A stretch of 64,000 bases of DNA from Blasia pusilla (lineage: Eukaryota): the NCBI GenBank assembly GCA_050084515.1, contig CM114271.1, positions 41,664,001 to 41,728,000 of the forward strand, read 5' to 3'. Positions 25,811 to 64,000 of this stretch are shown in pieces. The notes under the pieces are model-generated. The model was not told the DNA's origin and ran no database searches. It saw only the letters and a program-made list of their open reading frames with translations. A program made the position numbers and the translations under genes. Each line of letters opens with the position of its first letter. Position 1 is the first letter of the stretch.

Positions 25811-25997
<187 letters not shown>

Positions 25998-26557
25998 GAT
26001 CTTATAAAAAGTCAGTAGTTGGTAGTTGGGGGAGAAAATCCGTGGCTACAGATCGCACAGTGAATAGGCAGCCAAAAAGAACTTGTCATGTGCAATAGGG
26101 ACGGGACTATAGTGAACGGAAAAGAATGATAAAAAAAGATACGACAGTGAATATTCGAGCATACCTCAACGGCGGAAAGTATTCCAGATGCACCTCCGTG
26201 ATTAAGACGATTCAAAGTTGGTGAGCTCTAATGAAGTTTGCCACCACGTTTGCCTTCATTTGTGAACCACCAAATCGAGCGAATCATTCCAGAAAAATCG
26301 ATACTCCATTCTCCAACACGAACATGCATGCTCTGTATATTCGGGAAGACTTAAAAACGGAAAGTATTCCAGATCAACCTCGGCTTACATTCGGCTCCGT
26401 GTATTCAAGTTTTCCTCTGAACGCCACCGGGTCCGCCTTTCCGTCAGAGTCGCCAAAACGCGCCAACACCATTCGTAAGATCGTCTCCGCCCTACCTCTA
26501 ACATGAACGAGTAACCTGCGTCTCAGCCCGAACATGAACGAGTAACTTGCGTCTCAG

Positions 26558-26904
26558 CCCGATCTCCCTCGGAAGGTATTCCAACTAGGTTTCTTGAAAA
26601 AAAAACTGAAGGCCCCCCCGTCCTGGTGCCCGATCTCCCTCGGAAGGTATTCCAACTAGGTTTCTCGAAAAAAAAATTGAAGGCCCCCGTCCTGGTGCCC
26701 GATCTCTCTCGGAAGGTATTCCAACTAGGTTTGTCGAAAAAAAAACTGAAGCCCCCCCCGTCCTGGTGCCCGATCTCCCTCGGAAGGTATTCCAACTAGG
26801 TTTCTCGAAAAAAAAACTGAAGGCCCCCCCGGTGCCCGATCTCCTCGGAAGGTATTCCAACTAGGTTTCTCGAAAAAAAAAACTGAAGGCCCGCCCCTGG
26901 TGCC
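26558..26904 (+). repeat. Subterminal tandem array, 5 copies of a ~70-bp unit (CCCGATCTCCCTCGGAAGGTATTCCAACTAGGTTTCTCG-A9-CTGAAGGCCCC...)
   Basis: GATCTC marker at 26561, 26632, 26701, 26772 and 26838. It is preceded by a 2x31-bp duplication at ~26500-26561. Confidence 0.95.
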
Positions 26905-28704
26905 CTGAGTCTCTTGGTGCGGCGGCGTGAAACTCCGCTCACTCCCTGCTCGCCAATTGCAAAACTGAGGTGTCGAACTCGAAATTGGAGAAGGTCATTA
27001 GTGGCTACTAGACGGTTGGATCTGAACGAACCCAAATCTACACCGTTCATCCTTATGACCCAACTATTCGTCACACAAAGAAGGTGGGGATCGACTTTGG
27101 AGACACGGAGGCAGCTCATTGGTTGTTGCTAGGATCGAGCCTCCGTGCAAAACTTGGAGCACAGATAAACGACGAAGGTAGCCCAAACATGAACACATTC
27201 TTTCGCCGAACCGCTAAGGCCATTCGCATGCCCATATGCAATGGCATCGCGGCATATGGGTGGGATGGGTACATAGGTGATGGGTACTTGGGTGCAGGCC
27301 GACCCGCCGCGGATATCCGACCCACAGGGCGGATATATAGCTGGTCGGCCGGAACTACTCTTCCGGCCTACTCGGGGAGAGGGTGAGAGCGGGTCAGGGG
27401 TGGGATGACGGGTGGGTAGGGGGCGTAGGGGGGTTCCGGGGGTTCTGGAGGACCAGAGCCCCAGAGCCATAAAGGCTCTGAGTTCTCGGTCTATCGAGAG
27501 CCAGTTGAGAGATACCTCTAGAGGTAGCTCGGAGCGTCGGAGTTAACGGAAGTAACTAACCTCTCTGTGAGGTCTGGCCCCGCTCCGGCCCTCTCTTGAG
27601 AAGCGGCATTTCAGTTTGTAGTACGCATGCGCGCCGTCTGCTCGTCCTGAGTTCTGAGGGTTTTGAGGGTTTTGCGGACGTGGGTGGGGGGGAGCGAAGA
27701 GTGAAATGCAGGCAGGCAACGGAGATGGCGTGGGCGGAAAAAGCCCGAAAACGAACTCCTCGAGGCAGGTAGCAGGGCAGGTTGAACGTGAATGTGGAAC
27801 CTACGAGCGTCGTTGAACGGTGGCTGACCCTTTGTGGCTTTGGATCCGAGCTGGCAAGAATGACTCCCGGGGTATTGAGTGCATTTGGTGGGAATTGGGA
27901 CGCCCAATTATGTGGATGGTGATTTTGAAAATTTATTCAATCACATCCGAGAAATTTGAAGATCTTCCAGCGGAAGGCGAATTTCGCTGTAATTCAGGTC
28001 AATGCAAGGTGTGGTTGTTGTGGGATGGCGTTGTCGACAGGTAAATTTGAGGAATTCCCTGTGGCTACACATTTGACTCGAGGATTTGAATGATTTCAGG
28101 TTCATTTAATATAAGGGTATGCGATGGAATTAGTTGATAAGGATTCTATGTGCTGTAGTTGATAGGATGCTGTAAAGGGTTTTGGAGAGAATTTGTAAGT
28201 GTCCTGAAAAGATTCTGGGAAAGTTATTACGTGAATGAAGGGTTACGATTCGAAATCAGTTCGTAATATTTAGGGTTTGATATCTTAGGCTGGAATATCA
28301 GACTATGTGTTGAAAGTTCAATCTTCAATGCCCCGCTGGGCTTAAGTTGTCCTGACAAAATCTCTCTGGAAGAACTTCAGTGAAGCATACATGTAGCGAT
28401 TCCTGTCTGATTCTTAGTTGCCACGGTCTCTGGGATCCTGGGTTTCACTAAATTTGCAAAATTTTGTGGGTTTGAAAGCTGACAGGGAGTAGAAGCAGCG
28501 AATTTACGGGGAAAAAAGTGCAGAGCGATGAGCTTCCGTTTGGGAACGCAACTTTCTGGCTAACTAGAGAAGGATGGAAGCTGCCAACTTTCTGGGGACT
28601 GTCGACACTTAGGGCCGAGTTATGGTCCTGAACTTGTGATCTGTACCTTATTCTCCCTTGGCTCCCCTTTTTGCCGTCCCGAAGAGAAGCCAAACGTGTT
28701 ACAA

Positions 28705-31700
28705 ATGGAGACGAGCAATGGGGAAACAAGGAAGTCCTTAGAGAGGGCAAGTGACACGATGATGGTGGATGCACCCTCTGAATCGCCGTTTACCTTACTG
28801 AATCAACCGAAGTTGGAACTTTTTGATGCCATACCCGCCACTACTGCACCCACCGTAGCAAAGCCTCGATTTGAACCAAAAGTTAAACCTCGGGGTCCCC
28901 AAGCAAAGTCTCGAGTGTCGAAGCTCGCCCCACTTCCTCCTCGACCGGAGACACTTCAAAGCGCTAGCTCAGCACTCTCAAAATTAGATATATCTCCTAA
29001 CCCGAGTATTGACGTGAAACTCTCAGAGGCAGTTCCTCCTAGGTCTCAAAATGGGCCGAGTGATTCAATCGGCGGGGAGACTTTCAGTTCAGCGTCTACG
29101 CCTGGCCTCGTAAAGGTTAAGACAGAGTCCCTGCCGAAGGTGAAATTGGAGTCAGATGTCAGCGAGTCTATGCTGGTTGCTAAGGAAGAAGATACGTCTC
29201 TGAGGTTGGATCAGGAATTTCTCTTTGGAGCAGGTTCTGTCCCGAAACAAGAAAATCAACCACAACATGCTGATGAGCGAGTCAAATCTGATGTAGACCG
29301 TGTTGTACGCGAAATTGACGTGTTCGTGTCTCGCTCCGTCGATCCAGATACACAGGTTTTTTTGGGTTTTCGTTCTCTCCTTCTGTTGTAACTACTTTCG
29401 GCGTAGAGGAGAATATGATGAGTGCCATCCCTGTCAGAATTGCGTTTTGTAACCCTGCCTCAAGTCATGATGATGATACCTACTCAGAAAGATTGGGTGA
29501 ACTGCTTCATTTGAATGTATGTTTTGTTTTAATGGAGTTGCGTCATGAATTTCTGAAAGATACTTGATAGCATTCAAGGCCTTTACGAATTATTAGATGC
29601 TGGAGCGGTTTATGAAAATCTTGGTACCCTTGGACTGACTTTGTTTTCTTACCCACTGCTGGATCATAAATCTGATCTTTTGTCTTTATTTCTATGCAGT
29701 TATATCTTCTCCAATATCCCTTGAGGCCTGCATGGCGACCTTATGGATTGGAAGAACAGTGCCAAGAGGTGAAAGAAATTTGCTCTTGACTCTACTTCCT
29801 TATCAAGTGGGTGTTTCTTTATTGCTCCCGGCAAGATGCGTTCCTTTGCCAAAAATTTGTATACTGGGTCTTGTGCCATATGTGGCGAGCTAAGAGTATT
29901 ACTGGTACGTGTAGTGGTATACTGAAATCTTCCAGCCAAGGAGACAAGTGGAGGCCACACTTATTGACAGACATCATGAGAACCACAAGCATTGCTAAGG
30001 GACAATTGTGGGCTATTGGAGCATTTGGGAACTTAGAAATACACAGATGCAGCTTACTGTATGAATGCCTCTCCCAGTCTTTATTTCTTTGCGCCCTGTC
30101 TATGGATCCAAGCTCTTGGCCATCCTGTATAGGGCCTGGGAATGGAGGGATTGGATGCCAGTACTACATGTGGTGAAGAATGATGGATTATATTGTCAGA
30201 TTTGACAAGATAGTCAATCACTCTTCATCACTACTGAGAGCTGACGACATGTGATTTAGTCGAGTCCCTGATAGAAGCTGGTTGCCTTTCGGGAAACTCC
30301 AATATATGTAACGGTCAGAGCCCCTCCGGAGGGATTGCCACAGTGCCCCAGAAATGGAAACAAACAAGCATTGAAAGAAAGCAGTCTTTTATCCCTGCGT
30401 GAAATGTTAAGGCAGAAATTTTCAAGTGTATAATATAGATTGTGAAATAACTATCGAATGTGTCCGTCTTAAATTTAACATATCACACCCTCGTTCCAGG
30501 TTCTGCCTTAACTAAACTTTTGCTTGTGGAGATGGATTACCAAGATTGTGTATGAATGAGAGTGAGTTGTAATTCCCAGTGATTAAACCTAAAATGCTTG
30601 ATTTCATTCGGGTCAAAACCTAGTGGAGCAGTCCTTCTGGTGCCCCCAGTGTTGTGTTTGTTGAATTCCATCTTTGTTAGATGGTGAGGTTTCCCTCAGG
30701 TTTTAGCATGATAGTTTGTGATGCACCCTCTCAAGCATTCCTCACCTGGTTGAACGAGTTTAGGGTTTTCCTGTGGACAGTATGCAAAGCTTTGTTTTGA
30801 GTTTCCTCTCTCTACGTACAGACATGTCTCGCGCAGAAAACTTACCCTTATAACCTCACAACTAACTGATGACATACATGCAAACATGTACTCATCAGGT
30901 CCGCGTGAAGGCAGTGCAGAAAAAGTTGGAGCTAGATCTTGCTATTGATGTTGACACTGAAAACTATGACCCAGATGCAGCTGAACACCTGCAGATCAAG
31001 AAGCAGGTTAGTGAATGCAGGCTGAAGGATTTCTTGGTGTAAGCTTTTGTGAGTTAAAAGTTAGATGTCTACTGTTTTCTGATGATGAAACTTTATTTCT
31101 TCCACGTTATTTATTTATCTTTCTGCAAATGTTTTTTGTCCATTGGATGTAGTGAATGCAACTATTGAATGTTTCATGGATCTTTTGTTTTGTTCTCAGG
31201 GCATCGAGACATTGGGCACATTTAGTTTTAATATTCCATGAGTTTTCTGCTGACGTTTTTCTGATGGCTTATCCTCTCATGCAAGCCAGGGTTCAAGCTT
31301 TACAGTCTTGAATCTTTGATGGATCTGTTGTTCTGTCTTCGGGGGATCTAGACACTGTGTAATCAGTTCTACAAATGTCCTAGGAACTTTCTGCTGACTC
31401 TTTGCTGATGGCTTTTATCTTGGGATGTGATCATGAAAGACATTGTCATCATCAAAGATTGCTCTCACTACAAGTTATGCCATTGGTGTATTACAAGGTA
31501 ACAAGGTTAGTCTTCCTTACCTCTTGTTTCCATGATCGGTGCCACTCTCTCAATTCTGAATGAAGATGGAAGCATAATGTAGACATAAGCCTGGCCCTGT
31601 GATGAAGACAAAAGCACATGAGTACACAGAAGTCTGAAACTTTATGCTTACTAGAGCATATATATGTATTGACATGGTTGAATGTTTCACCATTCTGCAT

Positions 31701-34700
31701 CAAAGAGTGCCCAGATTGTAATCAGTGCCGATAACTTAACCGTACAGTGACAGATGAAGCCCAAGTGAACTGGTTTACACTGTTCTTGATAAACATGGTC
31801 TTGTGGATTGTGTAGTTTATTTTTTGCTCTGGCGAGATGCAGTGTTTACTGGTTGGAATAAGGAATCTCGGAAATTTGTGAACGAATGTCTTTACTATGA
31901 GTACTGATCATTTTCTGCTTCATGGGACTTTTCTGCAGTTGCATCTGAATCCCTTACAAGCTGTAGTTCAATTGCGGCCTTCCATGAAGTACCTGGATGA
32001 GGCTGAGGCTGAAGCAGCCAAGAAAAAACAGGGTGCTACCTCTGCCGTTGATGGAGATGAGGAAATGGCAGATAGTGAGCCTGCTGAGGCAACTCCTGAG
32101 CTTGTTGCATTACAGGTTTCTCTCTCTCTCCCTCAATTCCCTCCCTCCTCTCATATGGTACCTTCTTCACTTGTTCCTCTCTCTACACCCATCCCAGTCT
32201 CGAGCACCGTCCAACCAGGGCGCGGGGTCAATGGTTGCAAGGCTACAACAGGCACTACTTAATTAATGAGTACAGTCTCCCTCAATTCCGAGAGTGTCCC
32301 TCCTCTCATATGGTACCTTCTTCACTTCTTCCTCTCTCTACACCCATCTCAGTCTCAAGGACCGTCCAACCAGGGCGCAGGGTCTATTATCACAAGGCCA
32401 CAACAGGCACTACTTAATGAGTACAGTCTCTCTCAATTCCGAGAGTGTCTCCCTCCTCTCATATGGTACCTTCTTCACTTCTTCCTCTGTCTACACCCAT
32501 CCCAGTCTCAAGCACCGTCCAACCAGGGCGCGGGGTCTATGGTCGCAAGGCCACGACATGCACTACTTAATGAGTACAGTCTCCCTCAATTCCTCAAGCA
32601 CCGTCCAACCGAGGCGCGGGGTCTATGGTCGCAAGGCTACGACAGGCACTACTTAATGAGTACAGTCTCCCTCAATTCCTTTTGCCAAGCTGGTAACACC
32701 AGAATTGTTCAACACATTCAGTAGCGTAGATTCATTGTCCAAAGCTGCTGCACTGGTAAGTAATGTCTATTGGGGATCCCAATCAGGTGAAGTAGATGGT
32801 GTGGTGAAGAGTTTCTTGGTTGACACTTGGAAGCTCCGCACAAACACATTGTTTGGTCGGCACTCACACTAGATGAGAGTGTCTCCCTCCTCTCATATGG
32901 TACCTTCTTCACTTGTTCCTCTCTCTACACCCATCCCAGACTCTAGCACCGTCCAACCAGGGTGCGGGGTCTATGGTTGCAAGGCTATGACAGGCACTAA
33001 TTAATGAGTAATCTCCCTCAATTCCTACACTGCCAGAACATCACATCAGAAGTAAAGCGCTCTGTCATTTTGCATACCATTTGTCCCTCGCTGGAATATG
33101 GGGCAGTATGGGATGCCAACACCAAACAAAGGAACAGGCTTGAAGCTGTGCAGCTGAAGGCGTTTCGGGGCATGATGTCAGCTTCCTCACGAACAGCCCG
33201 AGTTGGTGTGAGATCAGAACTCGGAGTGGAACCCTTGGAGGATAGACGTGACATTGCCAAGTTGAAATGGCCGAGGCAGTTGGAGACAATGAACTCCCAT
33301 TGCTATCCTAAAGAGGTGATGGGGGAAAACTTGGGCCTAAAGAAGACCTGTAAAGCAGGCCAAATCTTGGACAAAAAAGGTTCCATAGATTGTGCAAGCA
33401 ACCAAGTACCCAGCAGGCCTGAACAGTGGGAGCAAGATGAGAAAGCATTTGTGGATACCATGACCAAAGCAGCAGGCAGACGTTCACAGCAGAACAGCAC
33501 GGAGAAAGCCATGAAAATGTCTGCCATCTCTCTCTTGACGGTATATCCTGGAAAGGCAGAACTGGAGAACTATTTGCGGAACCTTGCTTGGGAACCCGGC
33601 TCAAGTTCAAGTTTATGATGGGGGCAATCCCCTGGAACCATAAGAGAAGCAGGATGGGAACACAACTAAGCTCTTGCGCCTTGTGTGACGATGGAGATAA
33701 AACCTCTAGTCATTACTTGGTCTCGTGCCCAAAATTCACAACACACAGAGCAAGAGCATATGCCAATATTGCTAATCTGGTAACACCAGAATTGTTCAAC
33801 ATATTCAGTAGCCTTGATTCATTGCCCAACTCTGCTGCACTGGTAAATAATGTCTATTGGGGATCCCAATCAGGTAAAGTAGATGGTGTGGTGAAGAGTT
33901 TCTTGGTTGACACTTCGAAGCTCCACACAAACACGTGGTTTGGTCAGCACTCACACTATATGAGAGTGTCTCCCTCCTCTCATATGGTACCTTCTTCACG
34001 TGTTCCTCTCTCTACACCCATCCCAGTCTCAAGCACCATCCAACCAGGGCGCGGGGTTTAAGGTCCCAAGTCTATGACAGGCACTACTTAGTGAGTACAG
34101 TCTCTCTTTCAGTTCTCCTCACCAACATGTCATATGGTCAGCACTCGCACTACATGACAGTCTCCCTCCACTCAGATGGTACCTTTTTCACTTCTTCCTC
34201 TCTCTACACCCATGCCAGTCTCAGGCACCATCCAACCAGGGTGGGGGGTCTATGGTCGCAAGGCTACGACAGGCACGACTTACTGAGTACAGTCTCTCAG
34301 TTCTCCTTTGTCCCCAGGTCAGGCACAACCCAGTAATGTGCTACTGGTTCTATGGGTGTAAGCGTATGACAGGCAACGCTTAATACAAAGAGTCTCTATC
34401 TCCTACAAATGCTCAAGATAGGAGTGTTGAACCATTCTGAAGAGCAGGTCTTGCCTAACCCATAAGGCTGTGGGGTCTTTGGTTGTATTACAAAAGGCAC
34501 CTCTCTATGGACTGAGTCTCTATCTGAAAGTTGCAGATAAGTTTCTTGCATGATTCAAAAGATCAGGACTGGTTTTATGTTCTTTGGTGGGTTCTAGAGC
34601 GGCCTCTTATCACAGGTTTCCAGTACTCTATCCCTTGTTCCCTGATATGGATACTTAGATCAATTCTATTTTATTCCGTTTGTAAGAGAAACACTCCTTT

Positions 34701-37700
34701 TTGGCTATTTTTAAGCCCCATATTGAATATTTATCTGCTTTCCCAGGGACATTTCATTGTTGGGTTTATGTACTTCAGGCTTTTTTCACTTATTGATGTA
34801 ATTTAAGATACATGTGTGTTAGTATTGCTGAAAGTACCATCTATGGGGCCATCCCTTCTTGATGTCTTAAAGCATATATCATGCCTTTGCCTCACATGAC
34901 TTGCCAAAATTGCTTTTCTCTGATTAAATAATATGTAGTCAGAGATTATCTTTTTTTTGCTTGACAGAGAAGAGCATGTTTAGGTGAGTGATCTATGCCC
35001 ACATTTATAGCAATAATCAATGCTTCCACAGTGTCTTTGGGATCACTGTCTTCCAGGTGAATGTGCGAAGGCGTGAAACAGAATGGCAAGAAGAAAACAG
35101 GCTACATTCCCATGGATATCTGAAGCAACTGGACGAAGCAGAGGTGTGCTAATCTGGTGTTTGGAGTTAAGCATTGTCTTATGAGAAAATGCTGCACATA
35201 AGGTGTATAATGATGATTAGGGTCAATGAATTTGCATGGGCTTGCCCTGAAAGATGAAAGGTTGTTTTGTCCGAGTTTGTATTTTTCAGTTTGAACACCA
35301 CTAATTTGGTGGATCTGTTACAATTGACTTATATCCCTATTAGCGGTGTTTTTATGTTCCAATGTAGTTTATATTTGGCATTCCTTTCCTCGGATCCATA
35401 TCTTGCATTTCTGGGATCACATTCTTCAGTGTGACCAGTAAGAGATGGAGGGGAATTGTATGTGTCTGCTACATGAATGTTATGGATAGATCGTAAGTAA
35501 CATCTTTTTCATTATATGGTCAACTATTTAAGCTTTTCCTGAATGTTTTTTTTGTGATGATTTGCGCAGCCCTGGATACCCTTAGAACCTCATGGGGTTG
35601 ACAGCCCTGTGACTGATGCAGTTCGCTGTAAAATGATTGCATCATCAAGTTCTCAAATTCCTTTCAAGTTGCGGCCGTATGTATCCCATCCTTATATGAT
35701 TGGGCCTCCAGGATAGTCCTGTGTTTTGTCTGCACTTGTCATCCACCAGCAGAGAACCACAATGCTACGAATTAGGAGGAACTCTACTCATTTGTATGTT
35801 GAAAAGCATATGAATGGCAGTAATGATGCTCATGGTTCTTTCCTGCTGCATCTAATCTCTAATTTGGTCGTAACTTTTGTACGTATATAGGGATGACTAC
35901 ATTAAGAAGCTGGTCCCTGGCCATGGGACTGTAAGTTCAAGTGATGTATTATCTGGTGATGGGAGTGGGAGTGCGGGTTTCTCTAGAAGGTAAGCCTGGT
36001 TGACGTTACCTCCTTGTTGTCCATAGCCTGAGCACCTTGTCATATCACTTGGATGCACATATTGTGCCTCTTGCTCACTCTGTGTGTTTTGACATTGCAG
36101 TTTTTTGAATACGTTGCCACTGGAGAAGCGATTTCACCTTCTCTTGTCAAAGGTCAGCCTTTTAGAGACCAGAGTTTGCCACACTGTTTTGAGGTGCCTC
36201 TGGTACATTAGCAAGTGCTTTCACATATGCTTTCATAATATATGTGTGTCTCAGTTTCTGGAAACTTTTAAACTGGATATGTAGGAGGTTACTGCATGTT
36301 ATTGGTACCTTTCTCTATCAAGATCTGAATTAAAATACCATGCTCCTCCAAGATGAAGGGTCATACTATGGCAACATGAAAAGCTTATCAGCAGCAAGCT
36401 GTAAAGGTCAAAGTGAAATAGAACCAAGATTTTTGGACTCAACAGAGTAATTTCGAACCCAAGGTCAAGGTTATAAACTTTATGTTATGAATTTGGCTTT
36501 TGAAAAGAGTAGTGTGCATCTGAGCCAAATTTATCATCCCCACCAAGTTGCGACTGATATGAAATTATGATAGTGGTCATCTTATCTTCATGTCGGTAGC
36601 CAGTTGTCTTTTAGACTCTTATCATCCATCCATATAAAATCTAGACAGCACTAAATGTGGTCTCTACATGAGAAAGTTCAAACCTATCAGTGGTTGTACA
36701 TGGGATTGGCTCTGTACAGGAATTCCAACTGTGAGTAGTCTACCAAAATTTGGAGAAAGAGAAAACTTACTGGAGCGAACTGTTGGAAATTGAGGATGTA
36801 AGGTACTAGTTTTGCAGACACTTTTATGTCTGTTAACAACGACATCCATCTGTTGTCCATCATCCAGTTCCACTTTTTTGTGAAAAACTTAATTCAACCT
36901 TCCTTTCCTGCAGCCTTGCATTTAGATTGTAGGTTGCTTATATCATGTGCAGTGGAAACATTGCAACTAAGAGTAATGATTACATAATCAGACAATTTTC
37001 AGCATTACAAGTAAGAGCAGTAACTAGATAGTTGTACCATGTGCGGTTAAGTTTTATTTTTTCAAATCATTTTTCAACTCTTCTCTGATACATCTGTTCA
37101 TCTCCTCCTTTCCTCTTTCTATCTCCATAACATTTTATCCTTTGTAACTGCTACGTTAACCCAGTTGATCGCAAACTCTTATTCGTTAATGTGCTCAAAC
37201 AGAAGAAGGTGGTCATCTGTGAGGGTCTTGTGATTCATCCCTTATGTTTACATTGTCTCCGGTCTCCAGCCTCATGATAACATATTATGTTACTTTGCCA
37301 ATTTGACGAACATGGCACTGCCTCCCACAGGATTAAATGCTTAGCTCACATCATTACTCAAAGAACTTTTTTATTTTGGAAGTTCTCTGTACCATGGTTT
37401 TAAGAAAGGTGAACTTAGGTATAAGAATGAAACAAGAGTATCTTTAACCAAGTTCTTCCATCGTACATGTGAGATGACATCCTAGTAAAGCATTTCATAG
37501 ATTTCTCCTATTTCAGGACTGATACCCATCTGTGTTTTGTGGTCGAAATCACAGGGCCGTGTCCATGTTCTACAGTTCGAAAGGTTAATGAAGCTGGCAC
37601 CAGATGACTGCACAGAACAGGATGTTTTGAATGTGCTTCAAGAGAAAGCTGTCCTAGTACAAGGTTGCTGGGTTGCTGCTAGTAGCCTTCGTTTCTCTAA

Positions 37701-39376
37701 GCCGGTAGCGATTATCAGAGACTACCTTCTCTTACTTTTCACTAGGAACAGAGTTGTTCAGCATTCTCAGCTGGAAGACCTTCGGATCTCCAAGGAAATC
37801 TTGAGGGAAATTTTGCTCTCATTTGCTATCCAATCAGGTGTTACAGCAAGCTGGGAGTTTCAGGAAAGTACGGATAGATCATTTATCAAGCGCCACCAGA
37901 CTGTGGTTAAAGAGCAGGCACAACGCTGGGCAGAGGTGGAGAATCATCTTCGAGAGACTGTAAAGGGTCTTGAGGTTTCAAGCTTCAAAGCGGTTGGAAA
38001 GTCTCATATTGATTTGTCAAGTGTGAAGGAAGTCACAAAGAGAGCAGGATTAGGTTTACAAATTGGAGGCCTCACTAAACCATTTTCAGCCTCTGAGAAG
38101 GCCAAAGGGGTTCAATTCAATCTAAGTGCTGATGGCAACAACAGTCCAAAACAAATGATGGATGCGACAGTGCATACTTCTCTCTCTGAAGCAACTCTCG
38201 CTGCCTTGCCAGGGGCATTGCACAAAATTTTTATGAAGCACAATGTTTGCAGGTGTAGTTTTCATCTTATTACTTACCTTTTGTGTACTGTTTGCAACTT
38301 ACTCATTGAAAAGAGAGGTTTTTACAGAAGGTTTCTTTCTCATAATTTCCTGAGTGCAGGTGAAGAAGAGAGCATTATTATTGTTTGAAACTTTCAGATG
38401 TGAGTGTAGACTGCACCATGGTCAAATCATACACTAACAAATTGTAATAGGGGCCTTGATGGGGATACTTGTTGCAAGATGCAATGATGTGCCTATGCAG
38501 AAAGCATGAGGCTGATGATGCTAGGAGGGGTGTTCAATTTTGTCACGCCCTTGCTATATCTTATTCATTGTTACTTTCAACTTTTTCCTTGCAGGTTGCA
38601 GTTTATTTGTCAGAGTCTTCGTGCTATGGCTATAGTTGCAGCAAGTGGATCTAGTAAAGATCCATCTCATCAAGTAGCCGTGGAGGAGGCTAAGGTCAGC
38701 AGCAAAGGCTGCCTCGGCTCCCTTGCCGGAGCTAGAGGCTGCTGTGAGTAAAGTAGCTTCAAACATCGATGGTGTTTATTTCCTGACATCTTTAGGGAAT
38801 GGGACTCTAGATCCCTTCAGGTTCGTTGAGATTTTTGCCCCAACTCTTGAAAAGTGCAGGTTCATGTGCTCAGGCATTGTTTTGTATTCCTATGTTAATA
38901 TTTTGAAGCATAACGCCTTGTTTGCCTTGAGAATCAGGGAAATGTTCCTGACAAGTGGATTTTTTTTCTTAAGTTGTATTAAGCTGAAACTGTCTATGAA
39001 CTGGTTAATCCTTCCAGAAATGTCGTCATAGCCCTCTTGAGGGCAAAAGGACCAGGATCAGGTTTGCGGAAGACAGACATAATGGAAGCCTCAAAACTTG
39101 CACTGAAGACTGAAGTTCCTCAAGCTGTCTATCAAAAGGTAAAGATACAGACTGCTAATGTGGTGCCCTGGTGTCATGAAGTAATCTGTGGAAAAGATCG
39201 AACTCAGAAGTATAGGCCTTAAGTTTTTCCTCCTACTTAGATAGTTGAAAAAGATGTCCCAAGTTCCAATGGTATCATAGCTCTGAGGAGTGTTTGTTTC
39301 ACAGGTTCTCAAGGAGCTGTGCTATACGAAAGGAGGTGCTTGGGTTCTAAAACCTGGAGATGGACGCCCAGCCTAG
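28705..39376 (+). CDS. RPC5: DNA-directed RNA polymerase III subunit RPC5 (Sin-like/POLR3E); exons 28705-29355, 29700-29768, 30899-31006, 31440-31505, 31939-32115, 35057-35143, 35570-35676, 35891-35989, 36101-36152, 37555-38252, 38595-38820, 39018-39138, 39305-39376; one apparent +1 frameshift at ~38696
   Basis: Sin_N-type peptides DRVVREIDVF, LYLLQYPLRPAWRPY, KLELDLAID..NYD, YAIGVL, LHLNPLQAVVQLRPSMKYLD, AVLVQGCWV, RDYLLLLF, and C-terminal VLKELCYTKGGAWVLK. Introns are GT-AG with consistent phases. The start codon is uncertain (28705 or 28759). Confidence 0.88.
32127..34525 (+). mobile_element. Head-to-tail stack of ~9 5'-truncated LINE (RTE/RTEX-like) 3' ends in RPC5 intron 5, separated by the 14-bp sequence TCTCCCTCAATTCC
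   Basis: Copies at 32141-32275, 32290-32426, 32441-32579, 32594-32665, 32680-33011, 33026-34100 and 34119-34292, plus degenerate copies at ~34307-34392 and ~34403-34515. The common 3' end is ...GGTCTATGGTCGCAAGGCTACGACAGGCACTACTTAATGAGTACAG. Confidence 0.85.
33026..34100 (+). pseudogene. LINE ORF2 C-terminal fragment (post-RT thumb region + CCHC-type finger), frameshifted
   Basis: PSLEYGAVWD...RLEAVQLKAFR...VRSELGVEPLEDRRDIAKL and CALCDDGDKTSSHYLVSCP (Cx2Cx7Hx4C) are typical of APE-type non-LTR retrotransposon C-termini. Confidence 0.8.
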
Positions 39377-58363: not shown

Positions 58364-60948
58364 ACAAAATGAGGAGGTGAAGGCTAGAAGGACTTTGCTT
58401 ATAACCAGAACTAAACTGAAAGATAGAAAATGTGACAACTAAAAACTGGCATGCCAACTCCAAGCCCATTAAAAAGCTGGTGATTCAAATTATATGCAAG
58501 AAATAACCTGAGAAGGAAAAAAAATCTTGGGCAGAAACCTGATAAGGTAAAAAGTCTGACATATTTCAGAAAACCTGAATGTTTCAAATAGTCCCGGTAA
58601 AAAACGGATCTACTAAAAAATAGTGTCCGAGCACCGGGAGGGACTGAGTGACGAGAAAGTCCGTTTAGGGAGGCACGGGGTGGAAAATTAATCAATCCGA
58701 ACGGACGGTTGATCTGACAGAAGCCGGCCGGCGTCCAGTAAATGAGCGAACGGAACGGTTTAGGATTCCCATGGGAATGCCCTAATGTGTAGAACTTCCC
58801 GATCTCGGCAGTGAGTGGGTTGTTTATTGCTTTCGGAATAGTGCAGCGGACTGCCACAATACTAGCTGAGAAATACAAACATGAGGCAGAAGAACAAATG
58901 AAAGTAGTAAAAAATGACGATCGCCGAGCGGACTCAACAACGACGAACACCAACGTGTCGAGTGAGCGATCACTGAGAGCAAGCGGATTGGAGCGGGCGA
59001 GTGCGAAGACCTGACAAAGGAGACAGCCCGCATGACTCCGAGAGATAGTTGCAAAAAGTGAGAGCGCGCCAGAGGAGAAAGCAGCGAGATGATAACACAC
59101 AGTCGGAAGCAACAAAGAAATCAGAAACCTGTGAGGCACGGCAGGAAAGAACAGAGAAGAACGAGAACCAGAACGAAGAGCACGAACAAACGGACGAACA
59201 AATAGTTGCTCCTGCGAGAAGAGAGAGAGAGAGAGAGAGTAAGAGCGCGAAGGACGGCAGCGCGACCCAGATTCCTCGAGATTGGAGAGACGGCGTGAGC
59301 GCGCAAGAGTGCGAAGGGCAGAGAGACCGAATGCGCGGGAGTCACATGGGCTAGAGAAAGCGCGCGGCTTAGAGCAAAATCCGTCCACTCCATCTGACAT
59401 CCGTGACGTCAAGTTTCCAAGTAGACGTGGTGGTAAACCTGACAACAAACACGTACTTAAGACTTTCTTTATGGACATGATTATTTCCGTAATCAAAATG
59501 AAGTCAGCACTCGTCAAGAAAATCACATTTAGAGTTTTGGAAAACTTACATTACCTTTCTTTAGAATGGAGAGGTAAATCAACATCTCAATTTTTTTAGA
59601 AAAATTGTTAGATATGTTCAACATTTGATGTTAAGAAATTTTTATATCATTTCTAATGATGATATGAATAAGATATTTTTTTTGACATTATATCATTTGG
59701 AAATTCTATAAAATCATCTCCAAAGTGAGCTTGCTAAGATGCACAACCCTCTCCCACCTCCAATCCGTAAAAGTTTGTTGTATACACATGTTCAATTCCA
59801 AATTTTGAACTCTCACATGCGACCATAAAGATGATTCTTCAGTGTAGCTTGAATAATTTTTGGATGGTCTCCATGATGAACTACAAGCAAGATTTGGCAA
59901 AAATCCCCACCAAATATCATTAATTTGCAACCAATCAAAACAATCTTCGAGTCTTCCAATTCCTCTTCCATGATATTTTGGAAGGAGAAAATTACAAACT
60001 CAATGTATGGGAATAAGCGAAGCCCTTTGAATTACATATGATAAGCGGAGCCCTTTGAATTACATATGTAGCTTCGCTATTAATTGGTAATCGCTACTTA
60101 AATATGTTAATATTTTTGGCGAGATATCTCTTTACATCACAAGAGTTACAAAGTCATGAATGGAGTAGAGACTTACTTGCAAGTAAAGTTTTTCATCTAT
60201 ATTGATTGAAATCTTGAAGTGTGAATGGGTAGTGCATCCTCCATCAATAGCAAAGCAACTATCCCCGATGAAGCATCCAAAATCTTCTAGACTTGCAAGA
60301 AGAAGATTGTATAAGAACTTAAGAAGGTTTTCCCAATTTCATCAAGTCTGTTGATAAAGAAAATTTTGGAACTAGGTTTAGTAATTCCAGAAATGATGAT
60401 AAGAAGCTTATCGTCTATAGCATTCCAAATATATTTCTTTCCATCATTCAATTTATTATCTCCTAACCTAGGTCATTAATATAATGAATCTTGATTATAT
60501 AGGAGTTTTTTTGCTTCCAAATGCGAATGGGAAGATGGAGCATAGAAATCAGATTGGGGTATATCTAGGAAATCATATGCTGATTTCCTTGATTTTCTAA
60601 ATGATGGTGGACTTTCAATAGTATAATATTAATCATGTCACGTCTATTAGGATAAATCGATGAGATCTAGTAGAGCGCCTTGGAGATACTAGAGGACAAC
60701 CTCATGAGGTCGAGGATGACCTGTTGGAGGCATGGATAACTTGAGAGAGCAAGTTTCCCCATCGTTTCGGCTCATTTGGAGCCATATTGAGGAACTTACT
60801 ATTTCGGGTAAGTTACCATTTTTGGTGTAATTGACTTTCCACTCTGAGACGTGTCCCTTGATCCGCTACAACCAGTCAAGATCCAAAGAGCTTACCTGCG
60901 AGCATAGATTACCCTGGAGAGAGCTTGGGAGAGGGAAGGGGATATACC

Positions 60949-61053
<105 letters not shown>

Positions 61054-61410: not shown

Positions 61411-61455
<45 letters not shown>
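61411..61455. repeat. (AG)n microsatellite, ~22 units
   Basis: Uninterrupted AG run. Confidence 0.95.
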
Positions 61456-61458
<3 letters not shown>

Positions 61459-64000
61459 TGTTGTGATGAAGAGATTTGATTGATTTATTGGAGATATTTG
61501 GTATTTCTCGTCTCGTTGTGTGGATTCCATGAGTTAGCATGGGATTTTCTGCATTTTTTGTGTGTTCAGTGATAGCGATGTATGTTGTGTAGCGATGTGT
61601 ATGCGCACGGCAATAATCAAAGCATTAGAGACAAGATCAGGAATCCTTATTTTCTGCATAAGAGATGTAGGAAAAAGAAAAGAAAAGGAATTATCTCACA
61701 TCATTCATATAAGATATCATCTATAAGTCTATGAGTGGCGAGGATCAAAAATTGACTCCATAGTTTAGCAGGTCAAGTAGATGTGTTATAAGGTAGAATA
61801 ACAACAAATAGTAGACAAAGCGCATAATATGTGCAAATTTCATAAGCTTCTTGGAAGCATGAGTACGCTTCCCTATCATCCTTGAGAAGACTCATTTGAA
61901 TAGTTCCTCCTCAAAGGTTGAATATAACACTCCATCCATAGTTCGCAAGTACTCATATGTAGTTGGACCTAGAATATGATGAAGTAGCGACCACACGTAA
62001 TAGCCCTCACCTTCAACTACAAAAATATATAATACATAAAACATAGCAAATATTTTTTACAATGCTTCAAAACAAACTTGAAAAGAGTTTAAAAAGTCAA
62101 AATTTGAATGAGATATACTTAGATGAGTTAGATATAAGCGACCAATAGGATTATCACAATTGTGTCTTTTATGAATTCCAAAAATCCATTTTTTTATTGC
62201 TCCAACGATAATAGGAAGAAAAATCTATATATAGGTATTTTCAAGTTGATGAGTCCAAACAATAAGTTGCAAAGCATTGTATAAGAGTTGTCTCTTTTTT
62301 GTAGAATCTCTATCACATTGTCATGATCATTGAAGAAACTTTTTTATAACTTTGGTAGATGAGCTCCCTATCTTATAATGTTTGAATGTTTTTCATGTAA
62401 GTTGAACTTGAAAAGTCTCCAACATACCTCAAAAGAAGAGATATATCTATACTTGATACAATTTAAAATAATGAGGAGAAAGATAAACTATTATAGAATC
62501 AAATAGTTTAGAAGTTTAATTTATTGTTGATATGACCAAAAAGAATATAAACAAAGAATTCTTATATTGCATGAAGATAATATGAGGTTTAATTAATAAT
62601 ATCTATTGATGTGGACGTAGTTGCATCATTTGAAAACTTATATGATATGGCATCTAATCCCTTACACATATATTCATATAAGTATTTCACAGCCAAAATT
62701 ATGCTTACGATCTCCAAATTAACGTGACAATCAAAGAGAGTACATAGTAAAGGATTATAAGGAACAACCCAAGGATTATCCAAAGTTTGATCGCACTTCG
62801 TTATCTTCACTTTATTATCCAATTTTTCATATAGGGAAGAGGCATGCGACACTAAAATATTTCATGAAAAAAACATCGAATCATGGTGAGGTAAACAAAT
62901 ATTATATTTAGGCATAGATTGCATGCCTTCAATAATGGGATAATCGTCCTGGTTCTCTATATTTATGGCTGCAAATAGCTTGTAATAGGCTTTGGTACAC
63001 TTTTTGTTTTCCATATCCATGCATGGAACATTTGGATTGAGTTTTCCTATGGATCTTGAACCACGCAATTACTTATAGTAGATTGAAGTCTTGGATGAGT
63101 GTTTATATTATGTATCTCAACTTATATTATATCATCATAATCAGATGTAGAATGTGGGTTATCCTCATTTGAATGATCAAAATGTGTACATGTCAAATGG
63201 GGTTTTGGAATCCAACCATATGGATGCATCCTACAATCCTACCCAAGTTATTCTTCTCAAGAATAAGCCTTAATTACGCTCTTTTCTTTTTCTCAACAAC
63301 TCTTACAACCAAATTTGATCTATTAGTAGGATGTTGACCTGGTAATAGTGTTGATATGATCTCCTTCCATTTTGGATTGCACATCATCATAAGAAAATAA
63401 TCAAGTGTCGTACAACGGTTATTGCATCTTGATATATTTTTTTCCATATGGTGTAGATCTCTAGTAAAAGAAGAAGCTAATACAATGCGTCTCCCAATTT
63501 TTGCACCATTCCCGTGATTTTGATCTATAGCATCTTTTACACATGGATATAATTCAGCACGCACCTCTTTTTGATTTGAGCAAACCTAGGATATTCATTG
63601 CATCTCTATTCTAGCATAAATATCAATCATAAACTCTTGAGTACGAAGAACACATCAAATCAATAAATTATCATCTCTAGCACTAACATGTATTTTGAAC
63701 TGGAAATGAGGCAGACTTTTAAGGCAATAACTATCTTCTTACTTCCTTAAAGTTGAGCAGAAAATTTTTCCCGTCCCTGCTGAGATTCACATCACCTCTA
63801 ATGAAAGCTTTGGGTGCATGGTCTCACGCAATCAAACTATGCTCACATTTGGATACCATAAATATTGGGTGTTAATAATGACCATTAAAGTGTTCAACAT
63901 CGTTTGGAAGTTTGTGAAAGTTGATGATGGAAGAGCAAAAAGGAAGATTATGGAAGAAAACTTACAAGGAGGGATGGGGGAAGGGATCTAAAGGTTGAAT

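Follow-up and report, generated by a model that had tools for sequence, protein, structure and literature searches.

An array of LINE copies in an intron of RPC5

We analyzed a stretch of 64,000 nucleotides from Blasia pusilla (GCA_050084515.1, contig CM114271.1, positions 41,664,001 to 41,728,000 of the forward strand; this whole 64 kb stretch is the window below, and positions are counted from its first letter), in which truncated copies of a long interspersed nuclear element (LINE) stand head to tail in an intron of the gene RPC5. The gene was recognized by two matches to the Pfam family RPC5 (PF04801), one in an exon at 31939-32115 on the + strand (E 1.7e-9) and the other in the region 37561-38100 (E 8e-36). 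Stranded RNA reads reached a depth of 6.8 in the bin of this exon, versus 0 in the bins upstream. The exon ends in TTACAG, with TACAG at 32111-32115 and 32115 as its last base, and the intron begins with the donor GT at 32116. The native start of the intron (gtttctctctc, 32116-32126, + strand) makes, together with the first spacer of the array, a (TC)6 tract at 32119-32130. The next exon was read from the sequence and is predicted at 35058-35145 on the + strand (cttccag/GTGAAT...GCAGAG/gtgtgc), in a phase that fits the previous exon; the splice joint 32115>35058 is absent from the best 15 of 568 read joints. The intron thus delimited measures 2942 nt, about 81% of which is occupied by the array (32127-34526). 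The insertions would have enlarged it from roughly 0.55 kb to 2.9 kb, and the splice donor, 11 nt away, was left untouched. RNA reads that agree with the RPC5 exons in strand sense were also found at 34850-34983 (depth about 7.8), upstream of the predicted acceptor at 35058; this signal could stem from a different transcript, from intron sequence that was retained or from an unannotated exon. Near 34968-34983 there is a candidate mini-exon, AGAAGAGCATGTTTAG/gtgagt.

The array consists of LINE copies, numbered c1 to c9 from the exon outwards, and of the spacers S1 to S10 that flank them. The exon-proximal spacers are copies of a 14-mer, TCTCCCTCAATTCC, which was found on the + strand at 32127 (11 nt beyond the first base of the intron), 32276, 32427 (1 mismatch), 32580, 32666 and 33012, spanning 32127-33025; the same six sites had been listed in an earlier note on this DNA, made from the letters alone. 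The only other match, with two mismatches and unrelated, lies at 63702 on the - strand. The seven observed matches compare with 0.65 expected, and none of 100 shuffles reached seven. When the whole window was searched by blastn with the longest copy, seven copies in the same orientation were found, all head to tail within 32141-34293, and none elsewhere in the 64 kb. Their lengths (135, 137, 139, 72, 332, 1075 and 174-178 nt) are exactly those given in the earlier note. Each junction has the same order: the common 3' end of a copy, ...ACTTAATGAGTACAG, then a spacer, and then the 5'-truncated start of the next copy. The near identity of the 3' ends, also claimed before, applies to the set with the exception of c5, which ends in GAGTAA rather than in GAGTACAG.

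All parts of the array are on the + strand. Spacer S1 (32127-32140, TCTCCCTCAATTCC) is a copy of the target with no element upstream of it. It is followed by c1 (32141-32275), the last 135 nt of the LINE, which holds 3' untranslated region (UTR) only and carries a 4-nt insertion, and by S2 (32276-32289), an exact 14-mer. Then come c2 (32290-32426, 137 nt), with the same 5' breakpoint as c3; S3 (32427-32440, TCTCTCTCAATTCC), with its single mismatch; and c3 itself (32441-32579, 139 nt), the copy nearest to the family majority. The exact 14-mers S4 (32580-32593) and S5 (32666-32679) enclose the 72-nt c4 (32594-32665), and read ends diverge behind 32669 and 32673, within S5. Copy c5 (32680-33011, about 332 nt) covers the end of an open reading frame (ORF) and the 3' UTR; its first 2 nt may be filler, and a loose read end lies before 32682. 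The last 5 nt (ATTCC) of S6 (33012-33025), again an exact 14-mer, are also element sequence at the breakpoint of c6. The latter, at 33026-34100, is the longest copy (1075 nt) and comprises the C-terminal part of the LINE ORF and the 3' UTR. Further from the exon the spacers are decayed in the way that the earlier note had described. S7 (34101-34118, TCTCTCTTTCAGTTCTCC) overlaps with its last 4 nt the start of c7 (34115 or 34119 to 34292, 174-178 nt), and S8 (34293-34306, 14 nt, TCTCTCAGTTCTCC) matches it, so that c7 has spacers of the same type on both sides. Copy c8 (34307-34392) is a decayed 3'-end relic with a read depth like that of unique DNA. After S9 (34393-34403, TCTCTATCTCC), the strongly decayed relic c9 (34404-34516) and S10 (34517-34526, TCTCTATCTG) complete the array, and native intron follows.

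A profile built from c1-c7 only (nhmmer) recovered c8 with an E value of 0.0021 and c9, marginally, with 0.045, against 0.87 for the best unrelated match; the place, strand and phase of c9 fit the array. The spacers form contiguous blocks of six A-type, two B-type and two D-type sequences, the B-type spacers being both 14 nt long (34105-34118, with one mismatch, and 34293-34306). Across the seven clear copies there are six distinct 5' breakpoints, the one in common being that of c2 and c3. Because the breakpoints differ, we regard the insertions as independent events.

The element and its relatives

The ORF part encoded by c6 is the region behind the reverse transcriptase (RT) domain and includes a C-x2-C-x8-H-x4-C motif near 33680. 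Its reading frame changes near 33577-33615. At 33577 and 33581 small insertions distinguish most genomic reads of the family from c6, and the frame in this interval is therefore probably open in the majority of the family. No Pfam family was found in a 196-aa fragment, and the piece with the CCHC motif matched zf-RVT below the cut-off (19.6 versus 27.5 bits). A HMMER search with the ORF fragment against 1.84 billion representatives gave 91 proteins at E<=1e-3, with 35-48% identity and a best value of 8.8e-14. The four relatives of 1377-1630 aa all have Exo_endo_phos and RVT_1 domains, and no RNase H family was reported in these four. Judged by these relatives, the element, of which the window itself covers only the post-RT part and of which no full-length copy was seen, is probably a non-LTR (long terminal repeat) retrotransposon of the apurinic/apyrimidinic endonuclease (APE) type, that is, a LINE. 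When one relative (P0093) was compared with PDB sequences, the RT domains of R2 and L1 were its only matches, which does not discriminate between clades. A word-indexed protein search gave no longer relatives, an exact 19-mer of the 3' end had 0 matches among metagenome contigs, and a protein atlas returned unnamed clusters only, the few recorded taxa of which are animals and which were not used as evidence.

To describe the family in the same organism we mapped the raw reads of a DNA run and of an RNA run, together with two sets of contigs, on 31500-35500 at 82% likeness. In the DNA reads the LINE had a depth of 600-1100 per strand, compared with about 1-3 in the unique flanks, which means that the family is highly repeated; this excess of hundreds-fold over the flanks increases towards the 3' end of the element. 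The copies of the array, from 72 to 1075 nt long, have a constant 3' end and variable 5' truncation. Constant 3' end, variable 5' truncation and high copy number are hallmarks of LINEs, and all of them are present here.

Three metagenomic relatives (L001-L003), with about 30% protein identity and, in the case of L002 and L003, with a single ORF of 1253 aa or more, have in common with the window element a conserved 3' terminal motif, ...GGTCAATGGTC...GCA...AATGAGTACG (L001, 2667-2805; L002, 3996-4047; L003, 3735-3785). A profile made from these relatives only had six of the seven window copies as its best matches in the 64 kb (E 3.3e-4 to 0.034). The relatives end in a plain homopolymer, (C)8-10, followed by flanks that are unlike one another. 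The simple-sequence end, (C)8-10 in the relatives and (TC)n here, thus differs between lineages, as a templated tail would. Directly behind the C tail of L001 stands a second, 5'-truncated 3' UTR, so that the two form a head-to-tail pair. A 3' motif common to such distant relatives with another simple tail may offer a handle on RNA recognition in this lineage. A stable fold of the 3' UTR was considered and rejected (z-score 0.94; 163 of 200 shuffles fold as well), and we claim no structure from a fold of the alignment, which had just two short hairpins and a covariation term of -0.12 kcal/mol. Rfam gave 0 matches at the gathering score in the whole window and, at E<=1, only a chance miRNA-like match in or near the array (E 0.56).

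Ends of the family elsewhere in the genome

The earlier note had proposed that the element is specific for the 14-mer, and had named copies at unrelated sites ending in TACAGTCTCCCTCAATTCC as the case that would make the 14-mer part of the element. Of the loose read ends we consider the best 24 of 4354. Reads depart behind 32583 and 32669, that is, after TACAG and TCTC, into mixed flanks (554 X21 reads, agreement 0.34), or they run into (TC)n behind 32587 and 32673 (356 and 558 X21 reads). The flanks behind the tail are heterogeneous, with a consensus agreement of 0.34-0.48, and AATTCC follows the tail in none of these best-supported ends. Thus, genomic copies of the family end in TACAG(TC)n, and what flanks them varies. 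In its first 4-8 letters the 14-mer resembles the (TC)n tail of the family, so that its TC part is shared with the genomic tails; AATTCC, since the reads exit into mixed flanks or (TC)n, probably belongs to the RPC5 locus and not to the family majority. Specificity for the whole 14-mer is therefore not supported. At 32670, where the window has C, 782 of 850 X21 reads have T.

Some read joints link the 3' end and the TC tail to an internal point of the element. One is 32673>33931, with TCTCTC between the two parts, and a second, 32669>34072, was also present in a DNA contig. Together with the pair in L001, these joints suggest that stacking is not unique to the RPC5 locus. Joints with offsets of about 309 or 1087 nt were set aside as mapping switches among the paralogous copies of the array and were not counted as stacks.

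The 14-mer as a regenerated target

Two observations bear on the origin of the spacers. The 14-mer is also present in front of c1, at a place with no element before it, and five of the six 14-mer spacers have the same imperfect C, a non-TC letter, in their TC tract, which the genomic tails do not have. Because they share this departure from pure (TC)n, the spacers must have been copied from each other rather than have arisen as separate tails, and their imperfect TC tract is derived from the target. On both grounds we take the 14-mer to be target DNA that acts as a regenerated target-site duplication (TSD). Moreover, the family sequence continues upstream of 33021, as seen from a loose end before 33021 in 548 X21 reads, so that the 5' junction of c6 is a 5-nt microhomology (ATTCC) of the upstream target DNA with the cDNA. 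Copy c5 has 2 extra nt at its 5' junction, and the other 5' junctions are precise.

We conclude, with fair but not full confidence, that at least seven and probably nine independent insertions of an abundant APE-type LINE took place by target-primed reverse transcription at one short site in the RPC5 intron, and that the 14-mer was regenerated each time. The core of the earlier proposal, a stack of independent LINE insertions at the same site with re-creation of the target, is upheld by the six distinct 5' breakpoints and by the 14-mer before c1. In the mechanism that we envisage, the RNA of the element would end in ...GAGTACAG followed by a (UC)n tail, and the site would be made up of the imperfect TC tract and AATTCC (TCTCCCTCAATTCC). 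A nick in the bottom strand, where the TC tract begins on its upstream side, would allow the (UC)n tail to pair with the primer GAGGGAGA, with a G:U wobble at the odd position. Reverse transcription and a presumed top-strand cut 14 nt downstream would then leave each new copy with a 14-mer at either side, and thereby re-create the target. Later elements would enter one of these 14-mers, internal ones as well as the exon-proximal one, giving rise to 5'-truncated head-to-tail copies with the 14-mer between them. In older rounds, earlier versions of the spacer (TCTCTCAGTTCTCC, then TCTCTATCTCC) would have served as the target.

Several findings weigh against this interpretation. Identical 14-nt boundaries were used at least five times, which is unexpected for an element whose flanks vary elsewhere. 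The spacers of c6 are unlike, A-type upstream and B-type downstream, so either the live target changed by three to four events between rounds or c6 inserted without a clean TSD. A breakpoint and two derived letters are common to c2 and c3, so that this part of the array may be a secondary duplication. The C at 32670 is retained in 68 of 850 X21 reads and the ends considered are the best 24 of 4354, so that a similar tail may exist in a minority of genomic copies. Finally, the (TC)n may be either a templated tail or a target.

The TC tract is unlikely to be the whole of what marks the site. Tails of (TC)n stand at 3' junctions genome-wide, and (TC)n is also found on the 5' side of the RPC5 array. 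The window has four tracts of at least 10 (TC) repeats on the other strand, (GA)n microsatellites at 25816-25993, 59221-59239, 60952-61049 and 61412-61455, which are 178, 19, 98 and 44 nt long, respectively, with 89 repeats in the longest. None of these four carries a LINE copy, whereas the (TC)6 tract in RPC5 bears seven to nine. TC content alone therefore does not explain the hotspot. A further repetitive stretch, at 26515-26905, can be read in frame as tandem repeats of ...PSEGIPTRFLEKKTEGPP....

At 32111-32130 the exon end TTACAG and the (TC)6 tract, within 3 nt of each other, resemble the element end GTACAG followed by (TC)n. It is conceivable, although in our judgment unlikely, that the integration complex of the element is drawn to DNA resembling the element's 3' end and tail (...TACAG and then a TC tract). 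If so, the exon end would have mimicked the end of the element and seeded the first hit, and each insertion would have added a true junction of 3' end, tail and 14-mer, making the landing pad self-renewing. Were this the case, the stacks in RPC5, and perhaps also elsewhere in the genome and in the (C)n-tailed relative, would be nascent satellites. The resemblance between TTACAG and GTACAG may be due to chance, given the CAG/GT splice consensus.

Age order of the copies and alternative modes of growth

The earlier note had read the array as age-polarized, with older copies pushed away from the exon. In its strict form, in which each copy entered the exon-proximal 14-mer only and the array is a perfect chronology with the youngest copy by the exon, this mode of growth is in our view doubtful. 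The contiguous blocks of spacers (two D-type, two B-type and six A-type towards the exon) look as if they had come from a single evolving live target, the exon-proximal 14-mer alone is preceded by further TC repeats, and R1 arrays are described as growing at the 5' end of resident copies, by insertion into the TSD there (PMC2718515). Of the five CpGs common to all copies, 2, 3, 0, 0, 3, 3, 3, 5 and 5 are lost in c1 to c9, respectively, and this loss also rises along the array (rho 0.76, p 0.019). This trend, however, disappears without c8 and c9 (rho 0.46, p 0.30), so the age gradient rests on these two distal relics. The lengths of the end branches over c1-c7 (0.066, 0.071, 0.016, 0.026, 0.019, 0.059 and 0.096, with that of c8 the longest by far) do not increase with distance from the exon (rho 0.11, p 0.82). 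The tree is star-like, with none of five inner branches supported. Over the last 135 columns, c1 differs from the array majority by 8 letters (5 events), c2 by 10, c3 by 4, c5 by 9, c6 by 8 and c7 by 11, while c4 has 2 differences over its 72 nt; these comparisons span just 72-139 nt of shared length, and differences between source elements could mimic age. Copies c3 and c4, which stand midway along the array, have intact CpGs (5/5 in each) and short branches, whereas the exon-adjacent c1 and c2 have lost CpGs and have longer branches. Read depth agrees (about 900 per strand in the c3 bin, 160 for c1, 120 for c2, 60 for c7 and 1-3 for c8 and c9), although it exaggerates the differences because reads compete for the best-matching copy. 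That the youngest-looking copies are internal suggests that internal 14-mers were reused. What stands of the proposed polarity is a coarse order, supported by the contiguous spacer blocks, of c9 and c8 as the oldest, then c7 and c6, and then c5 to c1; a smooth gradient does not.

The other two explanations that we weighed concern the nature of the spacers and the multiplication of the copies. Instead of being duplicated target, the 14-mer could have been present in the template RNA, where it would be a tail of an unusual kind or sequence picked up from a source copy by transduction. Its TC-rich first letters and the reads that retain C at 32670, which exceed the expectation for a single locus, would be compatible with this, as would the downstream target sequence that is often found on R1 transcripts (PMC2718515). 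We nevertheless consider a templated 14-mer quite improbable: the AATTCC continuation is missing from the read ends described above, the copy before c1 has no element in front of it, the tails of the relatives are plain homopolymers, and the microhomology of c6 uses the end of the 14-mer as upstream target DNA. This explanation would, in any case, still need a pre-existing 14-mer in the intron. Local unequal crossing-over or replication slippage of one or two insertions, which the near-equal units of c1-c3 (149-153 nt) and the breakpoint and derived letters shared by c2 and c3 might suggest, and for which the expansion of transposable element (TE) dimers is a documented parallel (PMC5932611), is very improbable as the main source of the array. 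Exchange makes no new truncation points, yet the 14-mer is joined, always by the same end, to six different 5' breakpoints; the star-like tree has no supported inner branch, and c2 and c3 differ at 10 of 139 columns. A concatemer formed by template jumping in a single event was rejected, as it cannot put AATTCC between copies. Of the modes of growth considered, we thus favor repeated, independent insertion into a regenerated target.

Comparison with known systems

Few layers are missing or blurred in this locus, which documents repeated LINE integration at one 14-bp intron site to an unusual depth. All 5' and 3' junctions are preserved, which should make the nick positions and junction types readable for an unclassified LINE lineage. 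The mechanism of array formation is already known from published precedents, to which RPC5 adds a further case.

Kibi is an APE-type LINE that targets (TC)n in fishes (review, PMC3812793). Like Kibi, the window element, probably also an APE-type LINE, has (TC)n at its 3' junctions, and the RPC5 site starts in a TC tract. Unlike what would be expected of a Kibi-like preference for (TC)n, the four long tracts in the window are without copies, and the (C)n tail of the relatives favors a templated tail over a target. Double insertions of TEs are described as retaining the TSD where the two copies meet in tandem, and 5' truncations that differ as marking independent events (PMC5932611, McGurk and Barbash 2018). 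The RPC5 array resembles these tandems in having a TSD in its junctions and tail-to-internal junctions with distinct 5' truncations; whereas the published cases are mostly dimers in population data, here seven to nine layers lie at one 14-bp site.

A close parallel in architecture is R1, which in seven Drosophila species is described as forming tandem arrays with a 14-bp TSD between copies, newcomers having entered the TSD of a copy already in place (PMC2718515). In both cases LINE copies are arranged head to tail with 14 bp of duplicated target between them. Two features of R1-type arrays were found in RPC5, the 14-mer between copies (six, one of them before c1) and distinct 5' breakpoints (six in seven copies). 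The 5' junctions of R1 fall into precise junctions, junctions with extra nucleotides and microhomologies of 1-5 nt (PMC2718515, Stage and Eickbush 2009), and the same three classes occur in the RPC5 array. R1 is, however, strictly confined to one site in the 28S rRNA gene, a multicopy gene, whereas the RPC5 array lies in an intron of a protein-coding gene and the other copies of its element have varied flanks. With a flank agreement of 0.34-0.48, the element lacks the strict sequence-specific target that is a trait of the R1 clade. Re-insertion into a regenerated target, known from the ribosomal DNA-specific R1, thus seems to work for a dispersed element too.

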